13,147 nt of DNA from Candidatus Eiseniibacteriota bacterium (GCA_043819135.1 JBDRFG010000060.1:1-13147); one strand, 5' to 3'. Positions 1 through 13,147 are shown, numbered from the stretch's first letter. Notes: a model not told the origin generated them from the sequence alone. Numbers and translations: made by a program.

Positions 1-119
1 ATGGCGGGTCCGAGCACCGTGCTGTGTATCGCGACGATCGCACGGAGGCCGGCGACCTCGTCGAACGCGAAGCTCACCTGCTCGTGCTCGGCCTGCTCCA
101 GAGCCTTGAAGACTTCCAT
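1..119 (-). CDS. Glu/Leu/Phe/Val dehydrogenase (leucine dehydrogenase-like), 5' end only; continues off the left edge
   Basis: Not in the ORF track. Manual minus-strand translation from ATG at 119 gives MEVFKALEQAEHEQVSFAFDEVAGLRAIVAIHSTVLGPA..., matching the LeuDH N-terminus pattern (ME.F......EQ..F..D...GL.AI.AIH.T.LGPA.GG). SD GGAGGT lies 4 nt upstream. Confidence 0.85.
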   Translation of the reverse strand, partial: MEVFKALEQAEHEQVSFAFDEVAGLRAIVAIHSTVLGPA

Positions 120-171
120 TGAGACCTCCAGCCGGGGCGCCATGTCGGCGCCGGCGCGGCATCGGCTTCGG

Positions 172-951
172 CTACTCCTTGACCCAGCTCGCGGGACGCT
201 TCTCGAAGAACGCGGTGATGCCCTCACGGGCCTCACCGCTGGCGAAGCAGAGCCCGAACGCGTCGGACTCGTGGGTGCCTCCGGCGTCCACATCGGTGCT
301 CGTACCCTTGTTGACGCACGCCTTCACAAGCCCTACTGCCGCCGGGCCGTTCTTCGCGATCCGGACAGCCATCTCCCTGGCGGCGTCCATGAGAGCGTCG
401 GGCTCCACGACCTTGTTGACGAGACCCCACGAGAGCGCCGTCTCCGCATCAATGGGGGTGCCCGTGAGGATCATCTCCTTGGCCCGACCGAATCCCACTA
501 TCCTCGGAAGGCGCTGAGTGCCGGCAAAACCGGGCACGGCGCCGATGGTGACCTCGGGCTGCCCCATCTTCGCTTTCGTGGACGTCACACGCACGTCGCA
601 CGCCATTGCCAGTTCGAGCCCGCCTCCGAGGGCGTAGCCGTTGACGGCTGCGATGACGGGCTTAGGCAGGTTCTCAATTATTGAGAACGTCCGCTGCCCC
701 AGCTGCGAGACGTGCCTGGCCTCCATGCCGTCCTTGGCTTTGAGCTCCGAGATGTCCGCACCCGCTGCGAACGCCTTCCCCGCGCCCGTGACGATGACGA
801 CTCTGATGTCGGCGTCTCCGCCAAGCTCCAGCATCGCGTCGCCGATCTCGGTCATGGTCTCGACGTTGATGGCGTTCAGGGCATCCGGACGATTGATGGT
901 GACAACGGCGATCTGCCCTTCCTTCTCAACTGTGAGGTTCTTGAGGTTCAT
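172..951 (-). CDS. Enoyl-CoA hydratase (crotonase family, Crt-like)
   Basis: Motifs INRPDALNA, FAAGADI, GYALGGGLELAMACD and QPEVTIGAVPGFAGTQRLPR; both catalytic Glu are present. Start moved to ATG 951 (MNLKNL) behind GGAGGAG, just after the buk stop. 259 aa. Confidence 0.92.
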   Translation of the reverse strand: MNLKNLTVEKEGQIAVVTINRPDALNAINVETMTEIGDAMLELGGDADIRVVIVTGAGKAFAAGADISELKAKDGMEARHVSQLGQRTFSIIENLPKPVIAAVNGYALGGGLELAMACDVRVTSTKAKMGQPEVTIGAVPGFAGTQRLPRIVGFGRAKEMILTGTPIDAETALSWGLVNKVVEPDALMDAAREMAVRIAKNGPAAVGLVKACVNKGTSTDVDAGGTHESDAFGLCFASGEAREGITAFFEKRPASWVKE

Positions 952-962
952 TTCTCCTCCAC

Positions 963-2096
963 TTAGGTGCGCGACGCCGACTCGCCCTCGACCGTCTGGG
1001 GGTAGGTCTTCGCCACTTCTTCTCCTCTGAGTACTCTCAGGCACCCGAGCGCGAGCGCCTTGAGTTCGTCTTCGCCCGGCACGACGATGACCTTCCCGAG
1101 GAAGGCGATCTTCGTCCGGAGTTTCTCTACGATGTATTCGTTGTTGGCCAGGCCCCCGGTGAGCACTATCGCGGCCAGCTCTCCGTCCAGAGCCGCGGCC
1201 ATGCCACCGATCTCCTTGGCTATCTGGTGGATCATCGCGTCCATGACAAGCCTAGCTTCTTTGTCACCCCGGTCCATGCGCGCCGTCACCTCCACGGCGT
1301 CGGTCGTGCCCAGGTAGGCCATCATGCCCCCGCCACCCACGAGCTTCTTCTGTATCTCGGCGGCGGTGAACTCGCCCGAGAAGCACATCTTCACCAGGTC
1401 GACCGTCTGCACGTTGCCCGCCCGCTCGGGTGCGAACGGACCCGCGGACAGAGCATTACTCACGTCTGCCATGCACCCCTTCCGGAGCGCGCAGACGCTG
1501 ATACCACCGCCCAGATGCGCCACCACCAGGTTGACCTCCGCGTGGTCCTTCCCCAACTCGTCCGCGACCATGCGTGCGGTGGCTTTGACGTTGAGCGCGT
1601 GGACGAGGCTTGTGCGCGGGATCTCTGGCATGCCGGAGTAGCGTGCCGTGGCGTCCAACTCGTCCACGCAGGGCGGGTCGACTATGAAGGAGGGAATATG
1701 GTGGTCCCAGGCGATCCCGAACGCGAGCACGGCGCCCAGGTTCGAGGCGTGCTCGCCACGCACCGCGTCCCGCGCGTCGACTATCATGCGCTGATTGACG
1801 CCGTAGGTTCCGCTGACCGTGGGGGCGAATAGCCCCCCGCGCCCGACGACCGCGTCGAGCGAGGAGAGCGCGACGTTCCGGTCCTCCAGGAACTCGAGGA
1901 TCATCGACTTGCGGTACTCGTACTGGTCCCAGATCCGGTCGAAACGCGAAAGGTCGAGCGGCGTGTGCTGGACGTCTCCCGCGAACGAGCACTCCGAACC
2001 GTCGAAGATCGCGAGTTTGGTCGAGGTCGATCCCGGATTCAACACGAGTATCCGTTCGCTCCTCGCGTTATCTGTCTTCTTCTGTGGCATCGTCAT
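963..2096 (-). CDS. buk: Butyrate kinase / branched-chain carboxylate kinase
   Basis: ASKHA/Buk motifs ILVLNPGSTSTK, VGRGG, HASNLG, FIVDP, HALN, VAHLGGGISV, GPFAPERAG, LTGGLA and PGEDE..ALA.G. The start could instead be ATG 2090. Confidence 0.93.
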   Translation of the reverse strand: MTMPQKKTDNARSERILVLNPGSTSTKLAIFDGSECSFAGDVQHTPLDLSRFDRIWDQYEYRKSMILEFLEDRNVALSSLDAVVGRGGLFAPTVSGTYGVNQRMIVDARDAVRGEHASNLGAVLAFGIAWDHHIPSFIVDPPCVDELDATARYSGMPEIPRTSLVHALNVKATARMVADELGKDHAEVNLVVAHLGGGISVCALRKGCMADVSNALSAGPFAPERAGNVQTVDLVKMCFSGEFTAAEIQKKLVGGGGMMAYLGTTDAVEVTARMDRGDKEARLVMDAMIHQIAKEIGGMAAALDGELAAIVLTGGLANNEYIVEKLRTKIAFLGKVIVVPGEDELKALALGCLRVLRGEEVAKTYPQTVEGESASRT

Positions 2097-2144: not shown

Positions 2145-3302
2145 CTAGTAACCTCGCTCCTTGTACACTTCCCGCGCGACGAGGAACTGCATGATCTCGG
2201 CGGTGCCGCCGCCGATGGTCATCAGTCTCGAATCGCGGAAGAGCTGTTCCGTCTTGCAGTCCTTCGTGTAGCCGATGCCGCCCGTGACCTGCAGCGCCTC
2301 CGAGCACACCTCCTGCGCGGACACGCAGGCGAACAGCTTGGCCGCCGCGCCCTGCCTCGTGGCGGACACGCCCATGTCGATCTGCCGTGCGGCCTGGAGC
2401 GTCAGAAGCCTCGCGGCGTCGATCTTGACCGCCATGTCGGCGATCTTGAAGCTGACGCCCTCGAACGCCCTGATCTGCTTGCCGAACTGCTCGCGCTCCG
2501 TCGAGTGCCGTATGGCGAGCTCGAACGCCGCGCGCGCGTACCCGACCGCGCCGGCGGCCAGCGACGTGCGCTCGGTATCGAGTTCGTCCATGAGAATGGT
2601 GAACCCCTTGTTCTCCGTACCGAGCATGCTGGACGCCGGGACCCGCGCGTTCTCGATCTTCAGGTGAGCGACCTTGAGGCCACGGAGCCCCATCAGCTCG
2701 TAGTCCTTGATGATGCTGAAGCCGGGAGTCGCAGTCTCGAAGATGAAGGCGCTCATGCCCTTCCTTGCCTTGACCGACGGGTCGGTCACGGCAAAGAGCA
2801 GCATGTAGTCGGCAACGCTGCCGTTTGTGATGAAGCGCTTCTCGCCGTTGATGACGAACTCGTCGCCGTCGCGGACCGCCGTGGTCTTCATGCCGGCGGT
2901 GTCGGAACCGACCTCGGGCTCGGTGATCCCGATGGAGCCGACCTTTTCGCCCGTGACGATGGGAGGCAGATACTTCGCCTTCTGCTCGTCGTTGCCGAAC
3001 TTGTAGACCGGCGGCGCGAAGTAGACCGAGGTGACGCCCCTGGACACGTCCATCATCGGACACACTGCCGAGATCTCCTCGGCGATGATCGTCTCGTACA
3101 CCATCCCCAGTCCCGTCCCACCGAACTTCTTGGGTATGAGCGCGCCCATGTAACCGACTTTGCCGAGTTCGAACAGAAGGTCCCGCGGATACTCGGCGGA
3201 CGCCTCTATCTCTTCGGCCCTTGGGGCGATCACCTTCTCGGCGAAGTCCCTAACCTGCTCGCGGAACGCGTTCTCCTCTGCCGTGTAAAGCACGCTAAGC
3301 AT
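2145..3302 (-). CDS. Acyl-CoA dehydrogenase, probably isovaleryl-CoA dehydrogenase type (LiuA/Ivd-like)
   Basis: ACAD motifs ITEPEVGSD, NGEKRFITNG, REQFGK.I and LQVTGGIGY. The C-terminal IGGGTAEI lacks the MCAD/SCAD catalytic Glu (IYEGT), while LDTER carries the Glu at the IVD/LCAD position. It lies next to MCC and LiuC genes. Start ATG 3302 with AAGGA upstream. 385 aa. Confidence 0.85.
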   Translation of the reverse strand: MLSVLYTAEENAFREQVRDFAEKVIAPRAEEIEASAEYPRDLLFELGKVGYMGALIPKKFGGTGLGMVYETIIAEEISAVCPMMDVSRGVTSVYFAPPVYKFGNDEQKAKYLPPIVTGEKVGSIGITEPEVGSDTAGMKTTAVRDGDEFVINGEKRFITNGSVADYMLLFAVTDPSVKARKGMSAFIFETATPGFSIIKDYELMGLRGLKVAHLKIENARVPASSMLGTENKGFTILMDELDTERTSLAAGAVGYARAAFELAIRHSTEREQFGKQIRAFEGVSFKIADMAVKIDAARLLTLQAARQIDMGVSATRQGAAAKLFACVSAQEVCSEALQVTGGIGYTKDCKTEQLFRDSRLMTIGGGTAEIMQFLVAREVYKERGY

Positions 3303-3321
3303 GTCGGTTCCTTTCCGTGGA

Positions 3322-3834
3322 TCACTCCTTGGTTTCCGCCGGCGTGATCTCCACCATGACCTCGGTCGTACCGACCGAATCGCCCGCCGCGACGTTGACC
3401 TTCTTGACAACGCCGTCCACGGGAGACTTCACGTCGTTTTCCATCTTCATAGCTTCGACAACTACGAGGCTGGTCCCGACCGTCACCTCGTCTCCCTCGA
3501 CGACCATGACCTTGACCACGTTGCCGGGCATCGGCGCCTTGATGGTCCCGCCTGCGCCGGCTGATGCGCCGGCAGCCACGGCGCTGTCGTCATCACGCGA
3601 ACCGGTGTCGAACGAGAACTGACGTCCCTCCACCTGCACGTCCACCCCCCCGTCGCGCCGTCCCACGTACACCGTGTGCGAACGCCCGTCGATCACCAGC
3701 GACAGGACGCCGCTCCTGACGCGCGTCCAGTCGACGTCGTATGAGGTTCCGTCGACGATGACCTCCGTTCGGGGCGACCTGGCGTCGGTCTTGACCCGTC
3801 GCTTCTCGCCGCCTGTGGTGAACTCGAATTCCAA
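3322..3834 (-). CDS. Biotin carboxyl carrier protein (biotinyl domain with an N-terminal BT-like domain) of the acyl-CoA carboxylase
   Basis: IKAPMPGNVV, the EAMKMEN biotinylation motif and SPVDGVV. Likely start is TTG at 3834 with SD GGAGG 6 nt upstream. 170 aa. Confidence 0.9.
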   Translation of the reverse strand: MEFEFTTGGEKRRVKTDARSPRTEVIVDGTSYDVDWTRVRSGVLSLVIDGRSHTVYVGRRDGGVDVQVEGRQFSFDTGSRDDDSAVAAGASAGAGGTIKAPMPGNVVKVMVVEGDEVTVGTSLVVVEAMKMENDVKSPVDGVVKKVNVAAGDSVGTTEVMVEITPAETKE

Positions 3835-3865
3835 GTTGATCCTCCGAACCTGTCTGCAGTGCCGT

Positions 3866-3915
3866 GCCCGCGCCGCTTCCGCGGCCGAAGCCGCCACGCC
3901 CGCGCCCCTTCCGCG
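3866..3915. repeat. Imperfect 18-bp direct repeat, two copies, in the spacer between the biotin carboxylase and biotin carrier genes
   Basis: gcccgcgccgcttccgcg (3866-3883) and gcccgcgccccttccgcg (3898-3915): 17/18 identical, 32-bp period. Very GC-rich, so partly low complexity. Confidence 0.5.
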
Positions 3916-3925
3916 CGCGTGCGCG

Positions 3926-5428
3926 TCAGCGGCCGCCGCCGGCCCCGACGCGCCAGCTTCCGAGCGTGTCCCAGGGAGACGGCGCCCTCTCGCGCACCGC
4001 GCCCCCGGCCGATCCCTCCGTCGAGAGCGAAAGCGCCGCCGCTATGAGCGCCAGGTGCTCGGCCTCTTCAGAGACCGTGCCGCTCGCCCAGTCTGACATG
4101 TGCTTCTCGATGAAATCGGTCTGAGTCTCGCCTGCCGCGTAGGCCTCATGGTCGATGATCGCCCAGAGGTATTCGAGGCAGGTGGCGATCCCCAGGATGC
4201 TCGTGTCCTTGAGGGCGCGCTTCATGCGCGCCCGCGCGGCGTCCCTGTCGTCTGCGTGGACGATGAGCTTCGACAGGATAGGGTCGTAGTGGACCGGCAC
4301 CTCCCACCCCTCGTATATGCCGCAGTCGTGGCGAATGCCGGGACCCTGAGGTTCGCGGAACAGCGTGATCTTCCCCGAGCTGGGCAGGAAGTTGTTCCTG
4401 GGATCCTCGGCGTAGATGCGGCACTCGATGGCGTGGCCCGTCTGCGAAAGGTCGGCCTGCGTGAACTCGAGCTTTTCACCCGAGGCTATCAGTATCTGCT
4501 GACGCACCAGATCGACACCGGTCACCATCTCGGTGACGGGGTGCTCGACCTGGATACGCGCGTTGACCTCCAGGAAGTAGAAGCTGCCGTCCTCGTCGAG
4601 GAGGAACTCGACCGTTCCCGCGTTGGTGTACCCGCACGCCTTCGCCGCGCGGACCGCCGTGCTGCCCATGATCGCCCTTAGGTCGTTGTCGACCGCGGGC
4701 GACGGCGACTCTTCGACTATCTTCTGGTGCCGCCTCTGTATCGAGCACTCGCGCTCGAACAGGTGGACGCAGTGCCCGTGGGTGTCCGCAAGCACCTGGA
4801 ACTCGACGTGGCGCGGGCGCTCGATGAGCTTCTCGATATAGACCGTGTCGTCGCCGAACGCGGAGGCCGCGATTCTGCTCGAGGTCTCGATGGCCGCCTC
4901 GAGAGACTCCTTCTCGCGCACGACCTGCATGCCCTTCCCCCCGCCGCCCGCGGAGGCCTTGACCAGGACCGGGTATCCCATCTCCGCGGCCTTCGCGTAA
5001 TACTCGGCCATGTCGGCCCCGCTCGACAGCATGCCGGGAATGATGGGCACGTCCTGCGCGAGCATCGTCTCGCGAGAGCGGATCTTGTCGGCCACGAGCT
5101 GCAGAGCGTCCGAGGTCGGGCCGATGAACGTCAGCCCCTCGTCCTCGCAACGCTTGGCGAACCGCCAGTTCTCGGCCAGGAATCCGTAGCCAGGATGGAT
5201 GCCGTCAGCGCCGACCTCGCGCGCGGCCGCAATGACCGCGTCCATGTTGAGGTAGCTCTCGAGCGCGGGCGCCGGGCCGATGCGTACGGCCTCGTCGGCC
5301 TCCAGCACGTGCAGCGAGGCGCGGTCGGCGTCCGAATAGACGACCGCCGCCGGAATGTCCATGTCGCGACACGCCCTGACCACCCGGACGGCGATCTCAC
5401 CCCTGTTGACTATCAGGATCTTCTTCAT
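3926..5428 (-). CDS. Biotin carboxylase subunit (3-methylcrotonyl-CoA carboxylase alpha-like, without a fused biotinyl domain)
   Basis: KILIVNRGEIA, HPGYGFLAEN, KASAGGGGKGM, ERECSIQRRHQK, EVNARIQVEHPVTE, RIYAEDP, YDPILSKLI and a C-terminal SPW....WR as in MCC alpha. Start ATG 5428 (or TTG 5431). 500 aa. Confidence 0.92.
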   Translation of the reverse strand: MKKILIVNRGEIAVRVVRACRDMDIPAAVVYSDADRASLHVLEADEAVRIGPAPALESYLNMDAVIAAAREVGADGIHPGYGFLAENWRFAKRCEDEGLTFIGPTSDALQLVADKIRSRETMLAQDVPIIPGMLSSGADMAEYYAKAAEMGYPVLVKASAGGGGKGMQVVREKESLEAAIETSSRIAASAFGDDTVYIEKLIERPRHVEFQVLADTHGHCVHLFERECSIQRRHQKIVEESPSPAVDNDLRAIMGSTAVRAAKACGYTNAGTVEFLLDEDGSFYFLEVNARIQVEHPVTEMVTGVDLVRQQILIASGEKLEFTQADLSQTGHAIECRIYAEDPRNNFLPSSGKITLFREPQGPGIRHDCGIYEGWEVPVHYDPILSKLIVHADDRDAARARMKRALKDTSILGIATCLEYLWAIIDHEAYAAGETQTDFIEKHMSDWASGTVSEEAEHLALIAAALSLSTEGSAGGAVRERAPSPWDTLGSWRVGAGGGR

Positions 5429-5501
5429 CAAGTGGCGACCTTGTAGAGTGTGTGTTGACCTCATCGGCCCGGCGTGCGGGCTGCCTCCCCCGCTCCGCCG
5501 G

Positions 5502-6293
5502 CTATTTCTTCGGTTCGAGCCACGACGGCTTCCGCTTCTCGAGGAACGCCGACATACCCTCCTGCCCCTCGTCCGAGACCCGCACCTCGGCGATCACCCT
5601 CGCGGTGTACCCCTTGGCCTCCTCTAGCGGCATGCCGTAGACATTGTCCAGGAGCTCCTTGCAGACGCGCAGGGCCTCCGGACCGCTCGAGATCAGCCGC
5701 CTGGTGAAATCGGCCACGCACTCGTCCAGCTCCTCCAGCGAGCAGACGGCGTTGACCAGTCCGAGCCGGAACGCCTTCTCGGCGCTCATGCGCTCGCCGG
5801 AGAGGAAGAACTCGCGGCACGCGGCGGGTCCGGCGCGCATCACGACGTACGGCGAGATGCACGCGGGGATCAGACCTATCTTGACCTCGGACAGGCTGAT
5901 GACCGCCGTGTCGGCCGCTACGACGATGTCGTTCGCCGCCATCAGTCCCGCGCCGCCGCCTATCGCGTAGCCGTTGACTCGCCCCACGGTGGGCTTGGCC
6001 AACCTGTGGATGCGCTCCATGACATCGGAGATCTTCATCCCGTCGGCGACATTCTCCTCGAACGTGTAGTTGATGGTGTTCTTCATGTAGTTGAGGTCGG
6101 CGCCCGCACAGAACGAGTTGCCTTCCCCCGTCAGGACGACCACCCTGACCGCGGGGTCCGACTCGAACTTCCCGTAGGCGTCGAACAGCTCGTCCAGCAT
6201 ACGATCGTTGAACGCGTTCTTCACAGAAGGTCTTGTCAGCGTGATCGTCGCGACCTGGTCGGCGACCTCGGCTCTGATGGTCTGATAGTTCAT
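5502..6293 (-). CDS. liuC: 3-methylglutaconyl-CoA hydratase (LiuC-type enoyl-CoA hydratase)
   Basis: FCAGADL; GGGAGL, where the first crotonase Glu is absent as in LiuC/YngF-type proteins; LSEVKIGLIPACISPYV; C-terminal RVSDEGQEGMSAFLEKRKP.W. It sits between the MCC beta and alpha genes, as in liuBCD. Start ATG 6293 or GTG 6299, with SD AGGAG. Confidence 0.85.
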   Translation of the reverse strand: MNYQTIRAEVADQVATITLTRPSVKNAFNDRMLDELFDAYGKFESDPAVRVVVLTGEGNSFCAGADLNYMKNTINYTFEENVADGMKISDVMERIHRLAKPTVGRVNGYAIGGGAGLMAANDIVVAADTAVISLSEVKIGLIPACISPYVVMRAGPAACREFFLSGERMSAEKAFRLGLVNAVCSLEELDECVADFTRRLISSGPEALRVCKELLDNVYGMPLEEAKGYTARVIAEVRVSDEGQEGMSAFLEKRKPSWLEPKK

Positions 6294-6338
6294 GTGCACT
6301 GCCTCTCCTGCCGTGTTGTAGCGTCGTGCGCCGCTGCC

Positions 6339-7946
6339 CTACATCCTGAAGATGCCGTACTTCTGGTCCGGGATCGGTGCGTTGAGCGACATCGCGATCC
6401 CCAGGGCCAGTGCCGACCGCGTGTCGAGTGGGTCGAGTATGCCGTCGTCCCACAGCCTGGCGGTCGAGTAGTAGGCCGACGCCTCCTCCTCGTACCTCTC
6501 GATGACCGGAGCCTTGAACGCCTCCTGCTCAGCGGTGGTCATCTTGTGACCCTCTTTCGCCGTCTGCCGCATCTTGACGGTCAAGAGCACGTTGGCCGCC
6601 TGCTCGCCGCCCATGACGCCGATCTTTGAGTTCGGCCACATCCACAGGAACCGCGGCCCGTAGGCCCGGCCGCACATGCCGTAGTTGCCCGCGCCGTAGC
6701 TGCCGCCGACGATGACCGTGAACTTCGGCACGTCAGCGTTCGCGACAGCGTGGACTAGTTTGGCGCCGTGTCTGGCGATGCCGCCGTGCTCGTACTCGCG
6801 GCCGACGATGAAGCCGGTGATGTTCTGCAGGAATATGAGCGGTATCTTTCGAGTCGTGCACAGCTCGATGAAGTGCGCTCCCTTCATCGCGCTCTCGGAG
6901 AAGAGCACACCGTTGTTCGCCAGTATGCCGACGGGATAGCCCATGATGCGGGCGAAGCCCGTGACGAGCGTCAGGCCGTACAGCTCCTTGAACTCCTGGA
7001 AGCGACTGCCGTCGACTAGACGAGCGATGACCTCCCTCATGTCGAACGCCTTCTTGGCTTCGGCCGGGACGATGCCGTAAAGCTCCTCCGGATCGTACGC
7101 CGGGTCCTCGGGTTCCTTGACGTCCAGCTCGAACCTCTTCGGCGCCTCAAGTGTCTCGAGGATGTTCCGGGCGATGGCGAGCGCGTGCTCGTCGTTCTGC
7201 GCGTAGTGGTCGGCGGTGCCGGAGATGCGGCAGTGCACGTCGGCCCCGCCCAGCTCCTCCGCCGTCACCTCTTCCCCGGTCGCCGCCTTGACGAGCGGCG
7301 GTCCCCCGATGAAGATGGTGCCCTGCTCGCGCACGATGACGGTCTCGTCGCTCATCGCGGGCACGTACGCGCCGCCCGCGGTGCACGAACCCATGACGAT
7401 GGAGACCTGCGGGATGCCCATCGCGGAAAGACGTGCCTGGTTGTAGAAGATGCGCCCGAAGTGGTCGCGGTCGGGGAACGTCCCCGACTGGTGCGGCAGG
7501 AAGATGCCGCCGGAGTCGACCAGGTACACGCAGGGCAGCCTGTTCTCCATCGCCACTTCCTGCGCGCGGACGTGCTTCTTGATGGTCATCGGGAAGTACG
7601 TCCCGCCCTTGACCGTCGCGTCGTTCGCCACGACCAGCACTTCGCGGCCGTGGACGCGCCCCACCCCCGTCACCACTCCCGCCCCGGGAGCGGCACCGTC
7701 GTACATCTCGTACGCGGCCAGAGGGCTGAGCTCGACGAACGGCGTGTTCGGATCGAACAACTTCTCGAGTCGCTCTCGCACCAGAAGCTTGCCGCGCTCC
7801 TTGTGCCGCGTCCGCTGCGACTCGGGGCCGCCCAGGCCCGCGGTCTCCAGCCGCCCCCTGAACTCGGAGACCAACTCGAGCATCCGGGCGCGGTTGTCCT
7901 TGAACTCCTGGCTCTTCGGATCGACCTTGCTCTCGATTCGGTACAT
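6339..7946 (-). CDS. liuB: 3-methylcrotonyl-CoA carboxylase beta (carboxyltransferase) subunit
   Basis: MCC-beta signatures [102 protein letters not shown] and terminal GIFRM. 535 aa. Confidence 0.93.
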
Positions 7947-8036
7947 TCCGGGACCTTTCGTGTGGCTGCGGCCAGCGCGGGTATTGCCTGCTGATGCGCC
8001 GCGCGCGGGATTCCCCTTGGGCGGCTCTCAGCTCAC

Positions 8037-8432
8037 TTACCTCACTGGAACGAACTTGTATCCGTAGCAGATGATCCCGGCCTCGCCCTCGTCCCGGATC
8101 TTCCGGAACTCCAGCTTGACCGGCATTCCGACCTTGAGTTCCTCGAAGTCGCAGTCGGCGATCATCGCCGTCAGACGCACACCGTCATCGAGCTCCGCAA
8201 CACCGACGGCGTACGGAGTCTGGTCCGAGAACTGGGACGGTCCGACTCTGATGACCGTGTGGGTCAGGAGCTTTCCCTGCTTCGCCATCTCGATCTTCTC
8301 GAACTCGCGACCGGCGCAGCTCTTGCACACGACGCGTGGCGGGAAACTGATCTCGCCGCAGCCCTTGCACTTCGCCGCCTCGTACCTGTAACGCTGCGGT
8401 ATCTCTCTCCAGTATCTTGCTGATGTTGACAT
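8037..8432 (-). CDS. DUF35 (ChsH2-like) Zn-ribbon/OB-fold protein; scaffold subunit of a thiolase/HMG-CoA synthase complex
   Basis: ARYWR N-terminus, CKGCG..SFPPR.VCKSC zinc ribbon, G...T.T, PYAVGVAELDDG, VGMPV..EFRK and YGYKF.P. SD GGAGGT. Directly downstream of the thiolase. 131 aa. Confidence 0.92.
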   Translation of the reverse strand: MSTSARYWREIPQRYRYEAAKCKGCGEISFPPRVVCKSCAGREFEKIEMAKQGKLLTHTVIRVGPSQFSDQTPYAVGVAELDDGVRLTAMIADCDFEELKVGMPVKLEFRKIRDEGEAGIICYGYKFVPVR

Positions 8433-8539
8433 CTCAGTACCTCCGGGAGTAAGGGGAATCGTGTCAGTTACGGTTCAGAGCAATGGTCCCGCGATGGGAC
8501 CCTGCCGCGCACTCGATGGCGCGACGCCTGCGTTGCCGG

Positions 8540-9697
8540 CTACTCCGATCCTAGAATGTGCACCACGCACGATCCGCCCGTCCCGCCCATGTTCTGAGTC
8601 ATGCCGATCTTCGCGCCCTTGACCTGGCGCTTGTCGGCCTCACCTCTCAGCTGCTTGGTCACCTCAACGATCTGAGCAATGCCGGTCGCGCCTACGGGAT
8701 GCCCCTTCGACTTGAGCCCTCCACTGGCGTTGACCGGAATGCGCCCGCCGATCGCGCTCTCGCCGCTCTCGGCACTCGCGCCGCCCTTGCCTCTCTCGAA
8801 GAAGCCCAGCGCCTCGATCGCGCAGACCTCCGCGATCGTGAAGCAGTCGTGTACCTCGACGAGGTCGATGTCCGAAGGAGTGAGTCCGGCCTGCTCGTAC
8901 GCCTGCTCGCCGGCCTTCGCGACCGCGCCGAGCCACGCGAGGTCGTCGCGCGAGTGGAGGGCGATCGTGTCGGTAGCGTGCGCCGAGGCGAGGACCTTCA
9001 CAGGCTTGTTCTTCGTCAGATCCTTTGCCATCTCGAGCGGACAAATGATGACCGCCGCCGCGCCGTCCGTGATCGGAGAGCAGTCGAGAATGGTCAGAGG
9101 ATCAGCGATCATGACCGAGTTCAGAACCCTGTCGACCGTCAGCTCGAACGGGTACTGCGCGTGCGGGTTCTTCGACCCGTTCGCATGGTTCTTCACCGAG
9201 ATCGTCGCGAGCTGCTCGCGCGTCGTGCCGTGGGCGTGCATGTGCGCCACGGCCATCATCGCGTAGAGGCCCGGAAACGTCACGCCGTTGTAGACCTCAT
9301 ACTCCGCGTCGGCCGCCGTAGACAGCGCGAACGTCGCGCCGTCGCCGCCGATGTCGGTCATCTTCTCGACGCCGCCGGCCAGCACCACATCGTGCGCGCC
9401 GGACGCCACATCGAACATCGCAGACCTGAAGGCGATACCGCCGGAAGCGCACGCGCTTTCGACCCTGACGCCCGGGATCGGTCCCATGCCCAGGTAGTCC
9501 GCAAGGAGCGAACCCAGATGCTCCTGACCGACGAATAGGCCGCTCGACATGCAGCCCACATACAGCGCTTCGACCTTGTCGACTCCTGCGTCCGCGACGG
9601 CCTCGAGAGCGCTCTCGACGAAGATGTCCCTGAGGGACTTCTCCCAGAGCTCGCCCCACTTCGTCATCCCGACGCCAATGACAGCTACATCCCTCAT
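8540..9697 (-). CDS. Acetyl-CoA acetyltransferase, archaeal/SCP-x-type thiolase
   Basis: RVESACASG (catalytic Cys), [55 protein letters not shown] and NMGG. The HDCF/GHP pattern marks the archaeal/SCP2 class rather than the NEAF class. Start ATG 9697 with AGGAG. 385 aa. Confidence 0.92.
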
Positions 9698-9757
9698 GTC
9701 GTTTCTCCTGTTAAGCAAGTTCACACGTTCCATATGCCGACGACCAACACGAACGGG

Positions 9758-10804
9758 CTACTCGCCCTTGCGTATCTTTCCGCGGTACTTCGTGTAGGTG
9801 CCGTAGTCGATGTAGACCTTGTGCTCGTCCAGCAGCGCACGCGTGAACGGCGCCTTCCCGCGCATCTTCGGCAGCTCGTCCGTCACCTCATACACGAACC
9901 CGTCGCTGCCGGCGCCTGAGCCGTACGAGACCATGAAGATCTTGTCTCCGGGCTTCGCCACATCTAGCGTCGCCGAGAGACCCATCGGTGAACTCCCCGA
10001 GTAGGTGTTGCCCAGGGTCGGCGAGAGCCACCCCGGTTCTATCTGCTCCTTCATGAACCCCAGCTGCTGTCCCACTCTCATCGGGAACTTGCCGTTCGGC
10101 TGGTGGAAGACGGCGTAGGCGAAGTCCGACGGCTTCATGCCGGTCTTCTCGAGCAGCGCGGTCGCGCAGCCCGTCACGTGCTTGAAGTAGGCGGGCTCGC
10201 CGGTGAACCGTCCGGCGTGCCGCGGGTAATGCATGTACTCCCGGCGCCAGAAGTCGGGTGTGTCGGTCATGAACGAGTTGGTCGCGAGCACCTTGGCGAT
10301 GCCGTCGCCACGGCCGATGATGTAGGCCGCGGCTCCCGCCGCCGCCGAGTACTCCAGAGCGTCGCCGGGCGCGCCCTGCGATGTGTCGGCGCCGATGGCC
10401 AGGCCGTACTCGATGTAGCCGGCGTCCACGAGCCCCATGCAGACGAACATGGCCTCGGAGCCCGCCTTGCACGCGAACTCGAAGTCGGCGCAGTGGCAAT
10501 CCGGCGTAGCGCCTATGGCCTCTGCTACCACGGTCCCGGACGGCTTGACCGCGTACGGGTGCGACTCGGAACCGACGTACACGGCCCCGATCTTCTTCGG
10601 GTCGATCCCGCAGCGCTTGAGCGCGCTTCTCGCGGCCTCCACCGACATCGTGATGACGTCCTGATCCGGCGACGGAACGGACTTCTCGCGGAGCATGAGG
10701 CCCTTCTTGTAGCTTGGTGCGTCGGCGCCCCAGACCTTGGCGATCTCTTCGACCTTGATCCGGTTTCTGGGAACGTATGCGCCGTAGCCAATGATTCCTG
10801 CCAT
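9758..10804 (-). CDS. Hydroxymethylglutaryl-CoA synthase, archaeal type
   Basis: [28 protein letters not shown] (Glu), EFACKAG (Cys), [38 protein letters not shown] (His), GNTYSG and SYGSGAGSD. Its 348-aa length is typical of the archaeal family. Start ATG 10804 with GAGG upstream. Confidence 0.92.
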
Positions 10805-10848: not shown

Positions 10849-11895
10849 CTAGCACATTATGTTGCGCACCATACGTATGCGACCTACGCGCCTCGCCGCC
10901 GCGGCCACGGCGACCCGGTACGGGGTCGTCCCTTCCTTCTTCGCTCTCGTTACGATCCCTGCCACAACGTCATAGACCCGCCGGGCCTCTTCGAGCAGCC
11001 GCTCCCTCGGAGCGTCCGCCAGTTCCGGCTCGGTCTGGTAAAGTTCTGCACCGCCGATGACGAAATCGGGCGCATAGAGGATGCCGCGCTCCTTAAGTGC
11101 GTCCGCATGCCTCGGCTCCTCAAGGAGGTCGGAGGCGGCGCCGGCTACTATCTTGCACTTGAGCTCCGGGATGGTCTCGTCGTTCAGTATCCGCCCCACG
11201 GCGCAGGGCGACAGAACGAAGCAGTCCAGACCCAGGATCTCTTCTGGCCGCACGATCTCGACGCCCGGATGGCGGTCCTGTACCGTCTTCAGCGCGTCGT
11301 ATCTGATGTCCGTGACGGTGATCCGCGCCTCCTCGCGCGCCAGTTCGTCCACCAGGAGCTGTCCGACGTCACCGACGCCCTGGACCGCGACGTGGACGCC
11401 CTTCAGGCTCGAACTCCCGGTCAGTTCCCGGACGCACGCTTTCATCCCCCACAGCACGCCCACCGCCGTTATCTCGTGGCTGCCCTCCATCGGCGCTATG
11501 CTCGACGTCTCCCGACGGACGTAGCGGAAGTCCCTGTCGGTCGTGCCGAGTGCCGGGTAGGCGACGAAGAGCCCTTTGAGCCCTTCGATGAACCTGCCGA
11601 ACGCTCTGAAGTACGCCTCGTCGGTCTCCTGACCTTCCTCGGTCATGAGCACGGCCGCGCCCCCGCCCATGTCGCTGTCGAACGAGGCGCTCTGAAACGT
11701 CGATATCTCCGAGAGCCTCAGAGCGTCGACGATCGCGTCCTCCTCGCGCTCGTACTCCATGAGCCTGGTGCCGCCGACCGAGGTCCCGAGCGTTGTGTCG
11801 TGGATCGCGATGATGGCCCGGAGCCCGGTGGGCTTGTTCAGGCAGAACACAAGCTGCTCGTGCCCTCTCGTCTTCATCCGATCGAAGATTGTCAT
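10849..11895 (-). CDS. Leucine dehydrogenase homologue (Glu/Leu/Phe/Val DH family) lacking catalytic residues; probable pseudo-enzyme
   Basis: HEQLVFC...[66 protein letters not shown] and GILYAPDFV align with LeuDH over the full length. TYK is replaced by TFQ, GGGK by GGGA, and TAEDVGT by AYPALGT. Start ATG 11895 overlaps the epimerase stop (ATGA). 348 aa. Confidence 0.88.
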
Positions 11896-12320
11896 GAGCC
11901 TTCGAACTCCTTCTTGTCGCACAGCTCCACCATTGTGCCCTGCGTGTCCTTCGGGTGCAGGAATGATATCCGCCCGCCGTGAATGCCCGGCTTCGGCTTG
12001 CCCAGGACGCGCACGCCGGCCCCGCCCACCTCGTCGAGGGCCTCGGGAAGGTCCGCTACCTCGAAAGCGACGTGATGGAACCCCGGGCCGCGCTTCTCGA
12101 GGAAGTCCGCGATGGCGCCCTCGCCCAGGGGATGGATGATCTCGATCATCATGTCGCCGACCTTCAGGAATGCGGCCTTCACGCCGTGAAGCTCAGACTC
12201 TTCTACCTTGAGCACCTCCAGCCCGAGAAGGTTGGCGTAGAAGTCGTACGCGGCGTCGAAGTCCTCGACGACTATCGAGATGTGGTCGACCCGTGTCGCT
12301 TTCGCCCTGGTTCCGCTCAT
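11892..12320 (-). CDS. mce: Methylmalonyl-CoA epimerase (VOC/glyoxalase fold)
   Basis: VDHISIVV.D...A..FY..LLGL, GVKAAFL, IE..P, IA.FLEKRGPGFHHVAFEV.D, G.HG..ISFLHPKDT.GT.VEL. Immediately downstream of the mutase. 142 aa. Confidence 0.9.
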   Translation of the reverse strand: MSGTRAKATRVDHISIVVEDFDAAYDFYANLLGLEVLKVEESELHGVKAAFLKVGDMMIEIIHPLGEGAIADFLEKRGPGFHHVAFEVADLPEALDEVGGAGVRVLGKPKPGIHGGRISFLHPKDTQGTMVELCDKKEFEGS

Positions 12321-12360: not shown

Positions 12361-13147
12361 CTACCAGGCCGTATCGGACGGCCTGTATCGCCCGAAGACG
12401 CTCTCGAGCGCCGTCGTCATCTCTCCCAGCGTGGCTCGGTTCCTGGCGCACTCGAGCGCCGCCGCCATCGTCGGTCTTCCCGCTGCCGCGGCGTCCGTGA
12501 GCCTCCGGAGCGCTCCCTCGACGGCCGCGGCGTCGCGCCCGGCCCTGAGCTTCGAGAGGGCCGCGAGCTTGTCCCCTCTTATCGCGGGGTCGACCTTCAG
12601 AACGTCCATCTTCTCGGGCTCGTCGACCTCGTAGCTGTTCACTCCGACGACCAGCCGCTCACCCTGCTCGATCTCCTGCTGCTGGCGATAGGCGCTCCTG
12701 GCGATGGCTCTCTGGAAGTGACCCTTCTCGATGGCGGCCGTCGCCCCGCCCATGCCGTCTATCTTCTCGAGCTCGGCCAGGGCCTCGCTCTCTATCGTGT
12801 CGGTCAGCGCCTCGACGTAGTAGGAACCGCCCAGCGGGTCCGCGACGTTCGCGACGCCGCTCTCTTCTGCGAGGACCTGCTGCGTCCGGAGCGCTATGCG
12901 CGCGCTCTGCTCGGTCGGAAGCGCCAGCGCTTCGTCGCGCGAGTTCGTGTGCAGCGACTGCGTTCCGCCAAGGACCGCCGCCAGAGCCTGCACTGTCACG
13001 CGGACGACGTTGAGCTCCGGCTGCTGCGCGGTCAGGGTGCAGCCGGCCGTCTGCGTGTGGAACCGCATCATCTGCGCGCGCGGCGAGTCGATGCCGAAAC
13101 GGTCCCTCACGATGCGCGCCCACATCCTGCGGGCCGCCCTGAGCTTC
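12361..13147 (-). CDS. Acyl-CoA mutase large (substrate-binding) subunit, methylmalonyl-CoA mutase family, split type; 5'-truncated by the window edge
   Basis: The frame is open to the right edge: KLRAARRMWARI, RFHTQTAG.TLTAQQP..NVVR, LGGTQSLHTNS.DEALALPTE, ALRTQQ, DPLGGSYYVE.LT, VVGVN and ATLGE. It ends at VFGRYRP... with no DxHxxG cobalamin-binding domain. Confidence 0.9.
   Translation of the reverse strand, partial: KLRAARRMWARIVRDRFGIDSPRAQMMRFHTQTAGCTLTAQQPELNVVRVTVQALAAVLGGTQSLHTNSRDEALALPTEQSARIALRTQQVLAEESGVANVADPLGGSYYVEALTDTIESEALAELEKIDGMGGATAAIEKGHFQRAIARSAYRQQQEIEQGERLVVGVNSYEVDEPEKMDVLKVDPAIRGDKLAALSKLRAGRDAAAVEGALRRLTDAAAAGRPTMAAALECARNRATLGEMTTALESVFGRYRPSDTAW

Follow-up and report, generated by a model that had tools for sequence, protein, structure and literature searches.

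An archaeal-type thiolase/HMG-CoA synthase/DUF35 module joined to leucine-breakdown genes in a Candidatus Eiseniibacteriota bacterium: a candidate lyase-free ending of the Liu pathway

Introduction

Bacteria that degrade leucine by the Liu pathway (LiuABCDE) remove 3-hydroxy-3-methylglutaryl-CoA (hereafter HMG-CoA) with the lyase LiuE, and the acetoacetate that is freed is reactivated by the CoA-transferase ScoAB. The net reaction of lyase and ScoAB, or of an acetate-releasing lyase followed by a thiolase, is HMG-CoA + CoA -> 2 acetyl-CoA + acetate, which is strongly downhill and useless for synthesis. [quoted passage not shown] The window analysed, 13,147 bp long, corresponds to an entire contig of a Candidatus Eiseniibacteriota bacterium (GCA_043819135.1, JBDRFG010000060.1:1-13147), from a 2.69-Mb genome in 174 contigs (completeness 92.4%, contamination 1.5%) whose nearest relatives are labelled Candidatus Eisenbacteria. 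We find that the operon is a real, conserved and undescribed variant of the Liu pathway, and that the module is probably its last step, run in reverse (HMG-CoA + 2 CoA -> 3 acetyl-CoA).

The closest described relative of the module is the three-gene complex of Methanothermococcus thermolithotrophicus (PDB 6ESQ/6ET9), which, as described in PMC11522927, uses a shared CoA site to tie the thiolase reaction, which is endergonic, to the exergonic formation of HMG-CoA. The same three genes are present here with their catalytic residues intact, but the host is a bacterium that uses the methylerythritol phosphate (MEP) pathway and has no HMG-CoA reductase, the module is joined to MCC and LiuC, and the predicted direction is cleavage. 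With the Liu/Yng pathway (PMC4847356) the operon shares an acyl-CoA dehydrogenase, MCC beta, biotin carboxylase and biotin carboxyl carrier (BCCP) subunits and a LiuC-type hydratase; it differs in having the module in place of LiuE and ScoAB and in a split MCC alpha. The Myxococcus Aib route, according to PMC5389471, likewise links acetyl-CoA, HMG-CoA, methylglutaconyl-CoA and isovaleryl-CoA via an HMGCS and LiuC. In that route, however, AibAB and AibC stand where this locus has a biotin carboxylase MCC and an acyl-CoA dehydrogenase, and the synthase is of the MvaS type rather than the archaeal type. General family scans of the window's proteins found neither AibC nor AibR.

The same three-gene architecture is also known in bacteria, from PhlABC, MucABC and the P. 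fluorescens ACAT/HMGS-DUF35 complex (PMC12960953). By that account, the HMGS tetrad (E-C-H-N) and the histidine of the HDxF motif are needed for HMG-CoA chemistry and are missing from the repurposed bacterial complexes: PhlABC and MucABC have lost both motifs and the P. fluorescens complex has lost E-C-H-N, whereas both motifs are invariant here. Neither this motif loss nor the polyketide synthase/nonribosomal peptide synthetase neighbourhood of the Phl and Muc genes is seen at our locus. The same study counted 1,030 ACAT/HMGS-DUF35 clusters, and its main text never mentions ‘carboxylase’ or ‘methylcrotonyl’.

A further, putative ending is that of the AtuA type. In Zixibacteria-phylum relatives, AtuA is encoded upstream of MCC beta, in the slot of the module; it would need no ScoAB, and would release acetate with the loss of one thioester. 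AtuA has no match in this genome, and the carboxyltransferase of the operon resembles MCC rather than the AtuC of the Atu pathway. A full-text literature search, with supplements outside its scope, listed no paper on a link between the module and MCC or on physiological reversal of HMGCS (Vogeli 2018 and Theisen 2004 could mention the context), and the available part of bioRxiv 2024.07.05.601840 added nothing on leucine.

Results and Discussion

An intact module lies beside the MCC genes

The best match in the PDB for each module subunit is the corresponding chain of 6ESQ (HMGCS, E 3.7e-139; thiolase, E 1.5e-116; DUF35, E 1e-34). In alignments from which matches of <40% identity or <85% coverage were left out, the HMGCS tetrad is unchanged in 95/95 sequences, thiolase residues C83, H283, D284 and H333 are unchanged in 87/87, and the DUF35 zinc cysteines are retained in 67-70 of 85. 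Since the E-C-H-N and HDxF residues are intact, the module is not a repurposed acetyltransferase. The HMGCS-DUF35 pair had a predicted-complex score of 0.91 compared to 0.00 for the best control, with contact agreement of at least 97% and partner pLDDT of 86, although a similar complex has already been solved, so that the score speaks for likeness only; the mark was passed by 51 of 78 solved pairs and by 2 of 108 mismatched pairs. By sequence match and catalytic residues, the module genes encode the intact parts of a predicted archaeal-type complex. The genome holds two more SCP2-type thiolase fragments (C86:2156-3182 and C4:9535-10170), one alongside a second DUF35 gene.

The carboxyltransferase downstream is, judged by its matches, an MCC and neither a geranyl-CoA nor a propionyl-CoA carboxylase (PCC): it matches 3U9R at E 5e-236, compared to 1e-145 for geranyl-CoA carboxylase and ~1e-88 for PCC, and MCC is favoured over AtuC by ~300 bits. 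MCC alpha is divided into separate biotin carboxylase and BCCP genes, and the LiuC-type hydratase scores below its family cut-offs. Profile searches confirmed the limits of the genes, and their order, strand and 90-bp gap are as the first-pass annotation of this sequence had given them. Its assignment of an isovaleryl-CoA dehydrogenase (IVD) held in part. The acyl-CoA dehydrogenase has a Glu in LDTER and none in IGGGT, which we take to be the IVD arrangement, and both motifs are retained in 5/5 orthologues at the same position; its top PDB matches, however, are generic acyl-CoA dehydrogenases, with named IVDs ranking 6th and below. Thus, the enzyme is IVD-like by motif only.

The link between module and MCC is conserved

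We examined the 80 best loci out of at least 567, picked by HMGCS similarity and not at random. The thiolase is found in 76, DUF35 in 73 and MCC beta (at least 55% identity) in 57 of these loci, and a conservation survey suggested by the first-pass annotation thus came out in favour of the link: with 57 of the 80 loci sharing the adjacency, it is not due to chance. Most of the 23 loci without MCC beta (19) end within 8 kb. The carriers are labelled Zixibacteria, Aminicenantes, Acidobacteriota, Gemmatimonadota, Planctomycetales and KSB1, some at odds with their GTDB placement; six loci labelled Ignavibacteria belong in the Zixibacteria-phylum sample described below, so that the labels overstate the breadth. 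Among the best 120 matches listed in a protein search (7,918 of 8,000 candidates at E<=1e-100), no cultured organism was named. Three loci (L029, L050, L073) have no MCC beta next to the module, after which come LiuC and a pair of 2-oxoacid:ferredoxin oxidoreductase-like genes.

Lyase and reductase genes are scarce among module carriers. In 25 genomes of the organism's own phylum, PF00682 (the HMGL-like family) had no match, the full HMGCS was found in 13 and MCC beta in 15; in the two additional MCC beta genomes the module genes are cut at contig ends, and the other 10 genomes have neither. HMG-CoA reductase was found in two of the 25, one of them a module genome, and was missing in 14/15 module genomes there. 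Of the 80 genomes, we searched 50 (45 with the module linked to MCC, 5 without). A lyase above cut-off was found in eight; seven belong to a class that lies beside CoA-transferase III, and the eighth is canonical and comes from a genome without MCC at its module locus. No lyase above cut-off was found in any of the seven records titled ‘chromosome’. A reductase was found in 12 of the 50 (8 strong matches, 4 weak) and not in the other 38.

HMG-CoA consumers and biosynthetic genes in the genome

The first-pass annotation had noted that the window contains neither HMG-CoA lyase nor reductase, and profile searches extend this to the whole 92.4%-complete genome. There was no match to PF00682 or NF004283, hence no HMGL-like protein and neither HMG-CoA lyase nor LeuA, and none to PF00368 (reductase), PF07287 (AtuA) or PF01144 (family I CoA-transferases, which include ScoAB and AibAB); acetoacetyl-CoA synthetase was not searched for. 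The AtuA search was positive in 51 of 201 Zixibacteria-phylum genomes. By these profile searches, the genome appears to encode no known consumer of HMG-CoA.

A tblastn survey with 53 + 10 queries, in which a miss with a single query means not found with that query, detected dxs, dxr, ispA, ispU, accA, fabZ and lpxA. The genome also has ispG and one IspE-like GHMP kinase, its only GHMP kinase, and the MEP pathway is in use. The queries for hisG/D/A/F/I, trpA/C/D/E, argB/C, metB/F, ilvD/I/E and leuA, as well as gltA, sucA/C, cydAB, cyoAB, katG and atoD/A/B, had no match. We infer that the organism is an anaerobic amino-acid auxotroph that ferments peptides. Matches to hisB, trpB, argH, metL, ilvA, leuB, leuC and leuD had only 25-30% identity and were taken as paralogues. 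Two candidate signs of branched-chain synthesis were rejected: a lone IlvC-like gene (C96:12178-13161), the genome having neither IlvD nor acetolactate synthase, and a gene for a single-chain aconitase-family protein (a LeuC/LeuD-like fusion) followed by those for a citrate lyase gamma-beta fusion and CitF (C78, L140:4684-9348). IlvD is present in 6 of 80 genomes. It had been proposed that absence of leuABCD would favour an anabolic role of the operon; this test does not discriminate, because IlvD and the tested His, Trp, Arg and Met genes are missing as well.

Module, lyase and AtuA replace one another in relatives

We compared 201 Zixibacteria-phylum genomes, 185 of which have MCC beta. Among these, 122 carry the module only, 34 the module and AtuA, 17 AtuA only, 3 a canonical lyase only, 4 a lyase and the module, and 5 none of the three. 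Four of the last five were inspected (the fifth is G237): three show the thiolase and DUF35 genes at a contig end, and in one the contig ends just upstream of MCC beta. The 16 genomes without an MCC beta match comprise 11 with none of the three, 4 with the module, and G183, with module, lyase and a split MCC beta. In 108 genomes, the module occurs without AtuA and without any lyase-family match at E<=1e-40.

All eight canonical lyases lie directly after MCC biotin carboxylase/BCCP genes, with MCC beta and LiuC upstream in seven; in the eighth, G119, the contig breaks off. A run of PCC, mutase, epimerase and MCC genes in G078 continues into lyase, ScoA, ScoB and a canonical thiolase, and the order MCC-lyase-ScoAB-thiolase is found again in G100. 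Strong ScoAB-type pairs are found in 7/8 lyase genomes (the eighth is weak), 2/59 module genomes (2 more weak) and 0/13 AtuA-only genomes (2 weak), as one would expect if acetoacetate were set free by the lyase alone. The four lyase genomes with an unlinked module (L143:8304-10999, L144, L145, L146) have a divergent trio with an N-terminally shortened thiolase and a DUF35 without zinc ribbon, which may be a relic or have a new function. In G183 (L132:6587-14490), the module faces a liu operon that contains a lyase, and the gene for MCC beta is broken in two.

A second lyase-family class scores 268-287 bits and is the best match in 22 of the 201 genomes and in 7 of the 50. We did not count it as an HMG-CoA lyase, because all seven loci inspected (L108-L114) adjoin a CoA-transferase III-like gene (Pfam checked for one) and not MCC. 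Two of these loci also lie near a LeuB/tartrate-dehydrogenase-like gene.

AtuA is placed between DUF35 and MCC beta in 14/14 double loci fetched, and directly before MCC beta in 13/14 AtuA-only genomes with a fetched MCC locus; in the exception, G233, AtuA is elsewhere and LiuC is truncated. Of the 51 genomes with an AtuA-family gene, most have it just upstream of MCC beta (loci L156:10266-12113, L158:8558-10345 and L171-L188). In a quick tree of MCC beta (89 rows, midpoint root, no clade test), AtuA-only rows are nested among double rows in at least two and up to five places, which is consistent with module loss after AtuA gain, and six lyase-linked rows fall outside an 81-row clade that holds most module rows. 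We tentatively consider AtuA a candidate acetate-releasing HMG-CoA lyase. The module is exchanged with a lyase route that is catabolic only, or with AtuA, whose putative reaction would be so too, and is thus likely to be an exit from HMG-CoA. A Fisher test on the distribution (20/5/38/122, p 9e-8) was given no weight because kin are not independent.

Proposed reversal of the complex

Leucine would be deaminated and oxidised to isovaleryl-CoA, or isovalerate activated, and the dehydrogenase, MCC (at the cost of one ATP) and LiuC would convert this to HMG-CoA. The HMGCS cysteine would load HMG-CoA as an acyl-enzyme, and retro-aldol cleavage would give acetyl-enzyme and acetoacetyl-CoA; the latter, channelled, would be thiolysed at once (~-25 kJ/mol), pulling the uphill step. 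Since no free acetoacetate would be formed, a CoA-transferase would be unnecessary. Compared to lyase plus ScoAB, or to AtuA, one more thioester would be saved; this gain of about one ATP per leucine would make up for the ATP that MCC spends.

Based on thioester values that we take to hold, the net reverse reaction presumably costs +5 to +15 kJ/mol. Only ratios matter, because there are three thioester/CoA species on each side. Computed at +10 kJ/mol, a CoA/acetyl-CoA ratio of 10 brings the reaction to -1.4 kJ/mol, and a tenfold build-up of HMG-CoA, a level that ATP-driven MCC can raise, to -7.1. Crystals of the S. aureus HMGCS reportedly showed a back-reaction. We found no free energy for HMGCS in the literature; for the thiolase condensation, PMC10562921 gives +25.2 kJ/mol. 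In either direction a single uphill step is drawn along by a single downhill one, so channelling that serves the forward reaction should be no bar to its reversal.

Among the readings put forward in the first-pass annotation, the reversed complex as lyase-free catabolism appears best supported, by the exchange of the module for AtuA or for a lyase with ScoAB, the few synthesis genes and the branched-chain super-operon described below. We also lean, if only slightly, towards the broader proposal that this is a widespread, undescribed ending of leucine and isovalerate breakdown in uncultured bacteria, in which the complex would run HMGCS backwards to 3 acetyl-CoA with one ATP equivalent saved per leucine, and in which AtuA-family proteins would be a third, acetate-releasing HMG-CoA lyase that has displaced the complex more than once. 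HMGCS is treated as a one-way enzyme, and its physiological reversal, for which reversed citrate synthase offers a parallel, would show a channelling complex to be usable in both directions. It would also supply the final step that leucine breakdown now lacks in many genomes from sediment, groundwater and digesters, in which annotation currently reads this synthase as a mevalonate gene, and would suggest a role for most of the ~1,000 unexplained bacterial HMGS/ACAT/DUF35 clusters.

Several points weigh against this proposal. At +15 to +20 kJ/mol, reversal needs a CoA/acetyl-CoA ratio of ~10 plus HMG-CoA build-up, or fails, and at +20 no ratio that we tried made it negative. In the available parts of PMC11522927 and PMC12960953, the complex is shown to work only towards HMG-CoA synthesis. 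The genomes are metagenome-assembled, and kin among them are not independent. Four of the 80 loci have at least 8 kb downstream and no MCC beta, and 14 of the 122 ‘module only’ genomes hold a gene of the second lyase-family class, set aside by its context. The module is retained with AtuA in 34 genomes and with the lyase in G183, for which redundancy alone is no explanation; co-retention with AtuA could mean two directions. Another review gives the reaction of AtuA to LiuE (PMC4097962). A mevalonate branch in 8 of the 50 genomes may draw on HMG-CoA. Heme-copper oxidase occurs in 5/5 lyase, 5/5 AtuA-only and 3/5 module-only genomes, a tiny sample, and these counts do not support the idea that the module marks strict anaerobes. 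Finally, both leucine-dehydrogenase-like proteins of the operon lack an active-site lysine and tblastn found no IlvE, so that the deaminating enzyme for the entry step was not found.

Alternative explanations

In an anabolic reading, the complex would run forwards, LiuC would dehydrate, MCC would decarboxylate in reverse and the dehydrogenase would reduce, so that isovaleryl-CoA would become available for making iso-fatty acids, isovalerate or leucine. Forwards is the proven direction of the complex, and the MvaS/LiuC/AibAB/AibC route of Myxococcus, as described in PMC5389471, is a precedent. LeuA is missing in 25/25 phylum genomes; Buk and two proteins of the super-operon, the electron transfer flavoprotein (ETF) and the HdrA-like protein, could serve reductive flux; two directions would fit the 34 genomes in which module and AtuA occur together; and at three loci the module is linked to LiuC without an adjoining MCC beta. 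However, the AibAB family has no match in this genome and any match at all in only 4/59 module genomes, the carboxylase has a full biotin carboxylase, and cleavage enzymes replace the module in relatives. Most of the tested amino-acid synthesis genes are missing, and leucine must therefore be imported anyway. The only pair of this family adjacent to a module, at L055, was rejected as AibAB, since it keeps the CoA-transferase Glu and is nearest to glutaconate CoA-transferase (Gct-type). The anabolic model of the first-pass annotation thus survives as the weaker, and in our view unlikely, reading.

The distribution evidence fits equally well a hydrolytic catabolism, in which HMGCS would cleave HMG-CoA and the acetyl-enzyme would be hydrolysed, giving acetoacetyl-CoA and acetate (the AtuA-type outcome) before thiolysis, with no energy saving. 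Such a reaction would be far more exergonic, and HMGCS has acetyl-CoA hydrolase side activity. It would nevertheless have to pass the same uphill acyl-enzyme step with a catalytic tetrad that is the same as in the archaeal enzyme, and it would waste acetyl-CoA; we consider it quite improbable.

Still more doubtful is a hidden, unrelated lyase that would cleave HMG-CoA while the module does another job. A CitE-family enzyme, Rv2498c, is an HMG-CoA lyase in M. tuberculosis according to PMC6689899, and this genome, 92% complete, contains one PF03328 gene. That gene, however, is the citrate-lyase gamma-beta fusion adjoining CitF; the family is single-copy in 21/25 genomes whatever their MCC, and is missing from the module genomes G019 (100% complete) and G021. 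A hidden lyase would also lack ScoAB to reactivate acetoacetate (acetoacetyl-CoA synthetase lying outside the search), and would leave the fixed adjacency unexplained.

That leucine and acetyl-CoA both feed an HMG-CoA pool for the mevalonate pathway, the remaining model of the first-pass annotation, fails in this genome, which has dxs, dxr and ispG, a sole GHMP kinase that reads as IspE and, in its assembled 92%, no reductase. The idea is very improbable, and the reductase counts above also tell against it, although it may hold as a side branch in the eight of 50 with a strong reductase match. One of these cases, G037 (L148:7690-13020; also L101 and L104), has an operon for IDI-2, a reductase-GHMP kinase fusion, diphosphomevalonate decarboxylase and a further kinase-like protein but no HMGCS of its own, and must therefore draw on the module's HMG-CoA pool. 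In G004 and G024 (L097:1129-2646 and L098), stand-alone HMG-CoA-reductase-family genes lie beside a gene for an MMPL/RND-like membrane protein, outside any mevalonate operon.

The operon and its other genes

The window contains 14 genes, all on the minus strand and spaced by -4 to 107 bp from the mutase to the crotonase, with exactly 90 bp between DUF35 and MCC beta (Table 1, in gene order). A promoter and terminator scan gave a result no better than chance.

Table 1. Genes in the 13,147-bp window, in the direction of transcription
Gene product	Position	Strand	Basis
Methylmalonyl-CoA mutase large subunit, 3' part (cut)	12361..13146	-	TIGR00641 above cut-off; rest on contig C155 via 115-bp overlap
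Methylmalonyl-CoA epimerase	11892..12320	-	TIGR03081 above cut-off
Leucine-dehydrogenase-like protein 1, both conserved active-site lysines missing here	10849..11895	-	PF02812, PF00208, motif comparison
Archaeal-type HMG-CoA synthase, 348 aa, tetrad E80-C112-H234-N266 intact	9758..10804	-	TIGR00748 543.7 bits (cut-off 353), NF003274 above cut-off; 6ESQ chain I
Archaeal/SCP2-type acetoacetyl-CoA thiolase, 385 aa; catalytic Cys, HDxF, GH intact	8540..9697	-	NF004720 553 bits (cut-off 420); 6ESQ chain A
DUF35 scaffold, zinc ribbon + OB fold, 131 aa, four Cys	8037..8432	-	PF12172, PF01796; 6ESQ chain E
3-Methylcrotonyl-CoA carboxylase beta (LiuB), 535 aa	6339..7946	-	Top PDB match 3U9R
LiuC/AtuE-type hydratase, predicted methylglutaconyl-CoA hydratase, 263 aa	5502..6293	-	PRK07468 and PRK05674 best, both below cut-off; ECH_1; conserved place after MCC beta
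MCC biotin carboxylase subunit, 500 aa	3926..5428	-	PF00289, PF02786, PF02785
Biotin carboxyl carrier subunit (BCCP), ~170 aa	3322..3834	-	PF00364, gene call
Acyl-CoA dehydrogenase, 385 aa, IVD-like catalytic Glu placement, predicted isovaleryl-CoA dehydrogenase	2145..3302	-	Pfam acyl-CoA dehydrogenase domains, motifs
Butyrate/branched-chain carboxylate kinase (Buk)	963..2096	-	TIGR02707 above cut-off
Crotonase, short-chain enoyl-CoA hydratase	172..951	-	PRK05809 best match
Leucine-dehydrogenase-like protein 2, 5' end (cut), start approximate	3..158	-	Open reading frame text; 93-bp overlap with contig C140; orthologue's top PDB match leucine dehydrogenase 1LEH

The ends of the contig overlap C155 (115 bp) and C140 (93 bp) without mismatch. 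C155 carries PCC and mutase genes, and C140 carries leucine-dehydrogenase-like, BirA-like, thymidine-kinase-like and HBD-like genes; a lyase just outside the window, which would have told against lyase-free catabolism, is on neither. In three better-assembled relatives the run is unbroken and also includes genes for ETF, an HdrA-like protein, a CCG Fe-S protein, a second mutase, a 3-hydroxyacyl-CoA dehydrogenase and a second thiolase. We infer that the run forms a single super-operon, which handles the acyl-CoAs that come from all three branched-chain amino acids.

The genome has five 2-oxoacid:ferredoxin oxidoreductase alpha genes. Two leucine-dehydrogenase-like paralogues with complementary losses flank the operon here and in relatives (L122-L127, L147). 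Protein 1 lacks the MTYK lysine, and the GGGK lysine is also missing in this genome and in 3/9 of the relatives' loci, while protein 2 keeps MTYK but has GGGA or GGGS.

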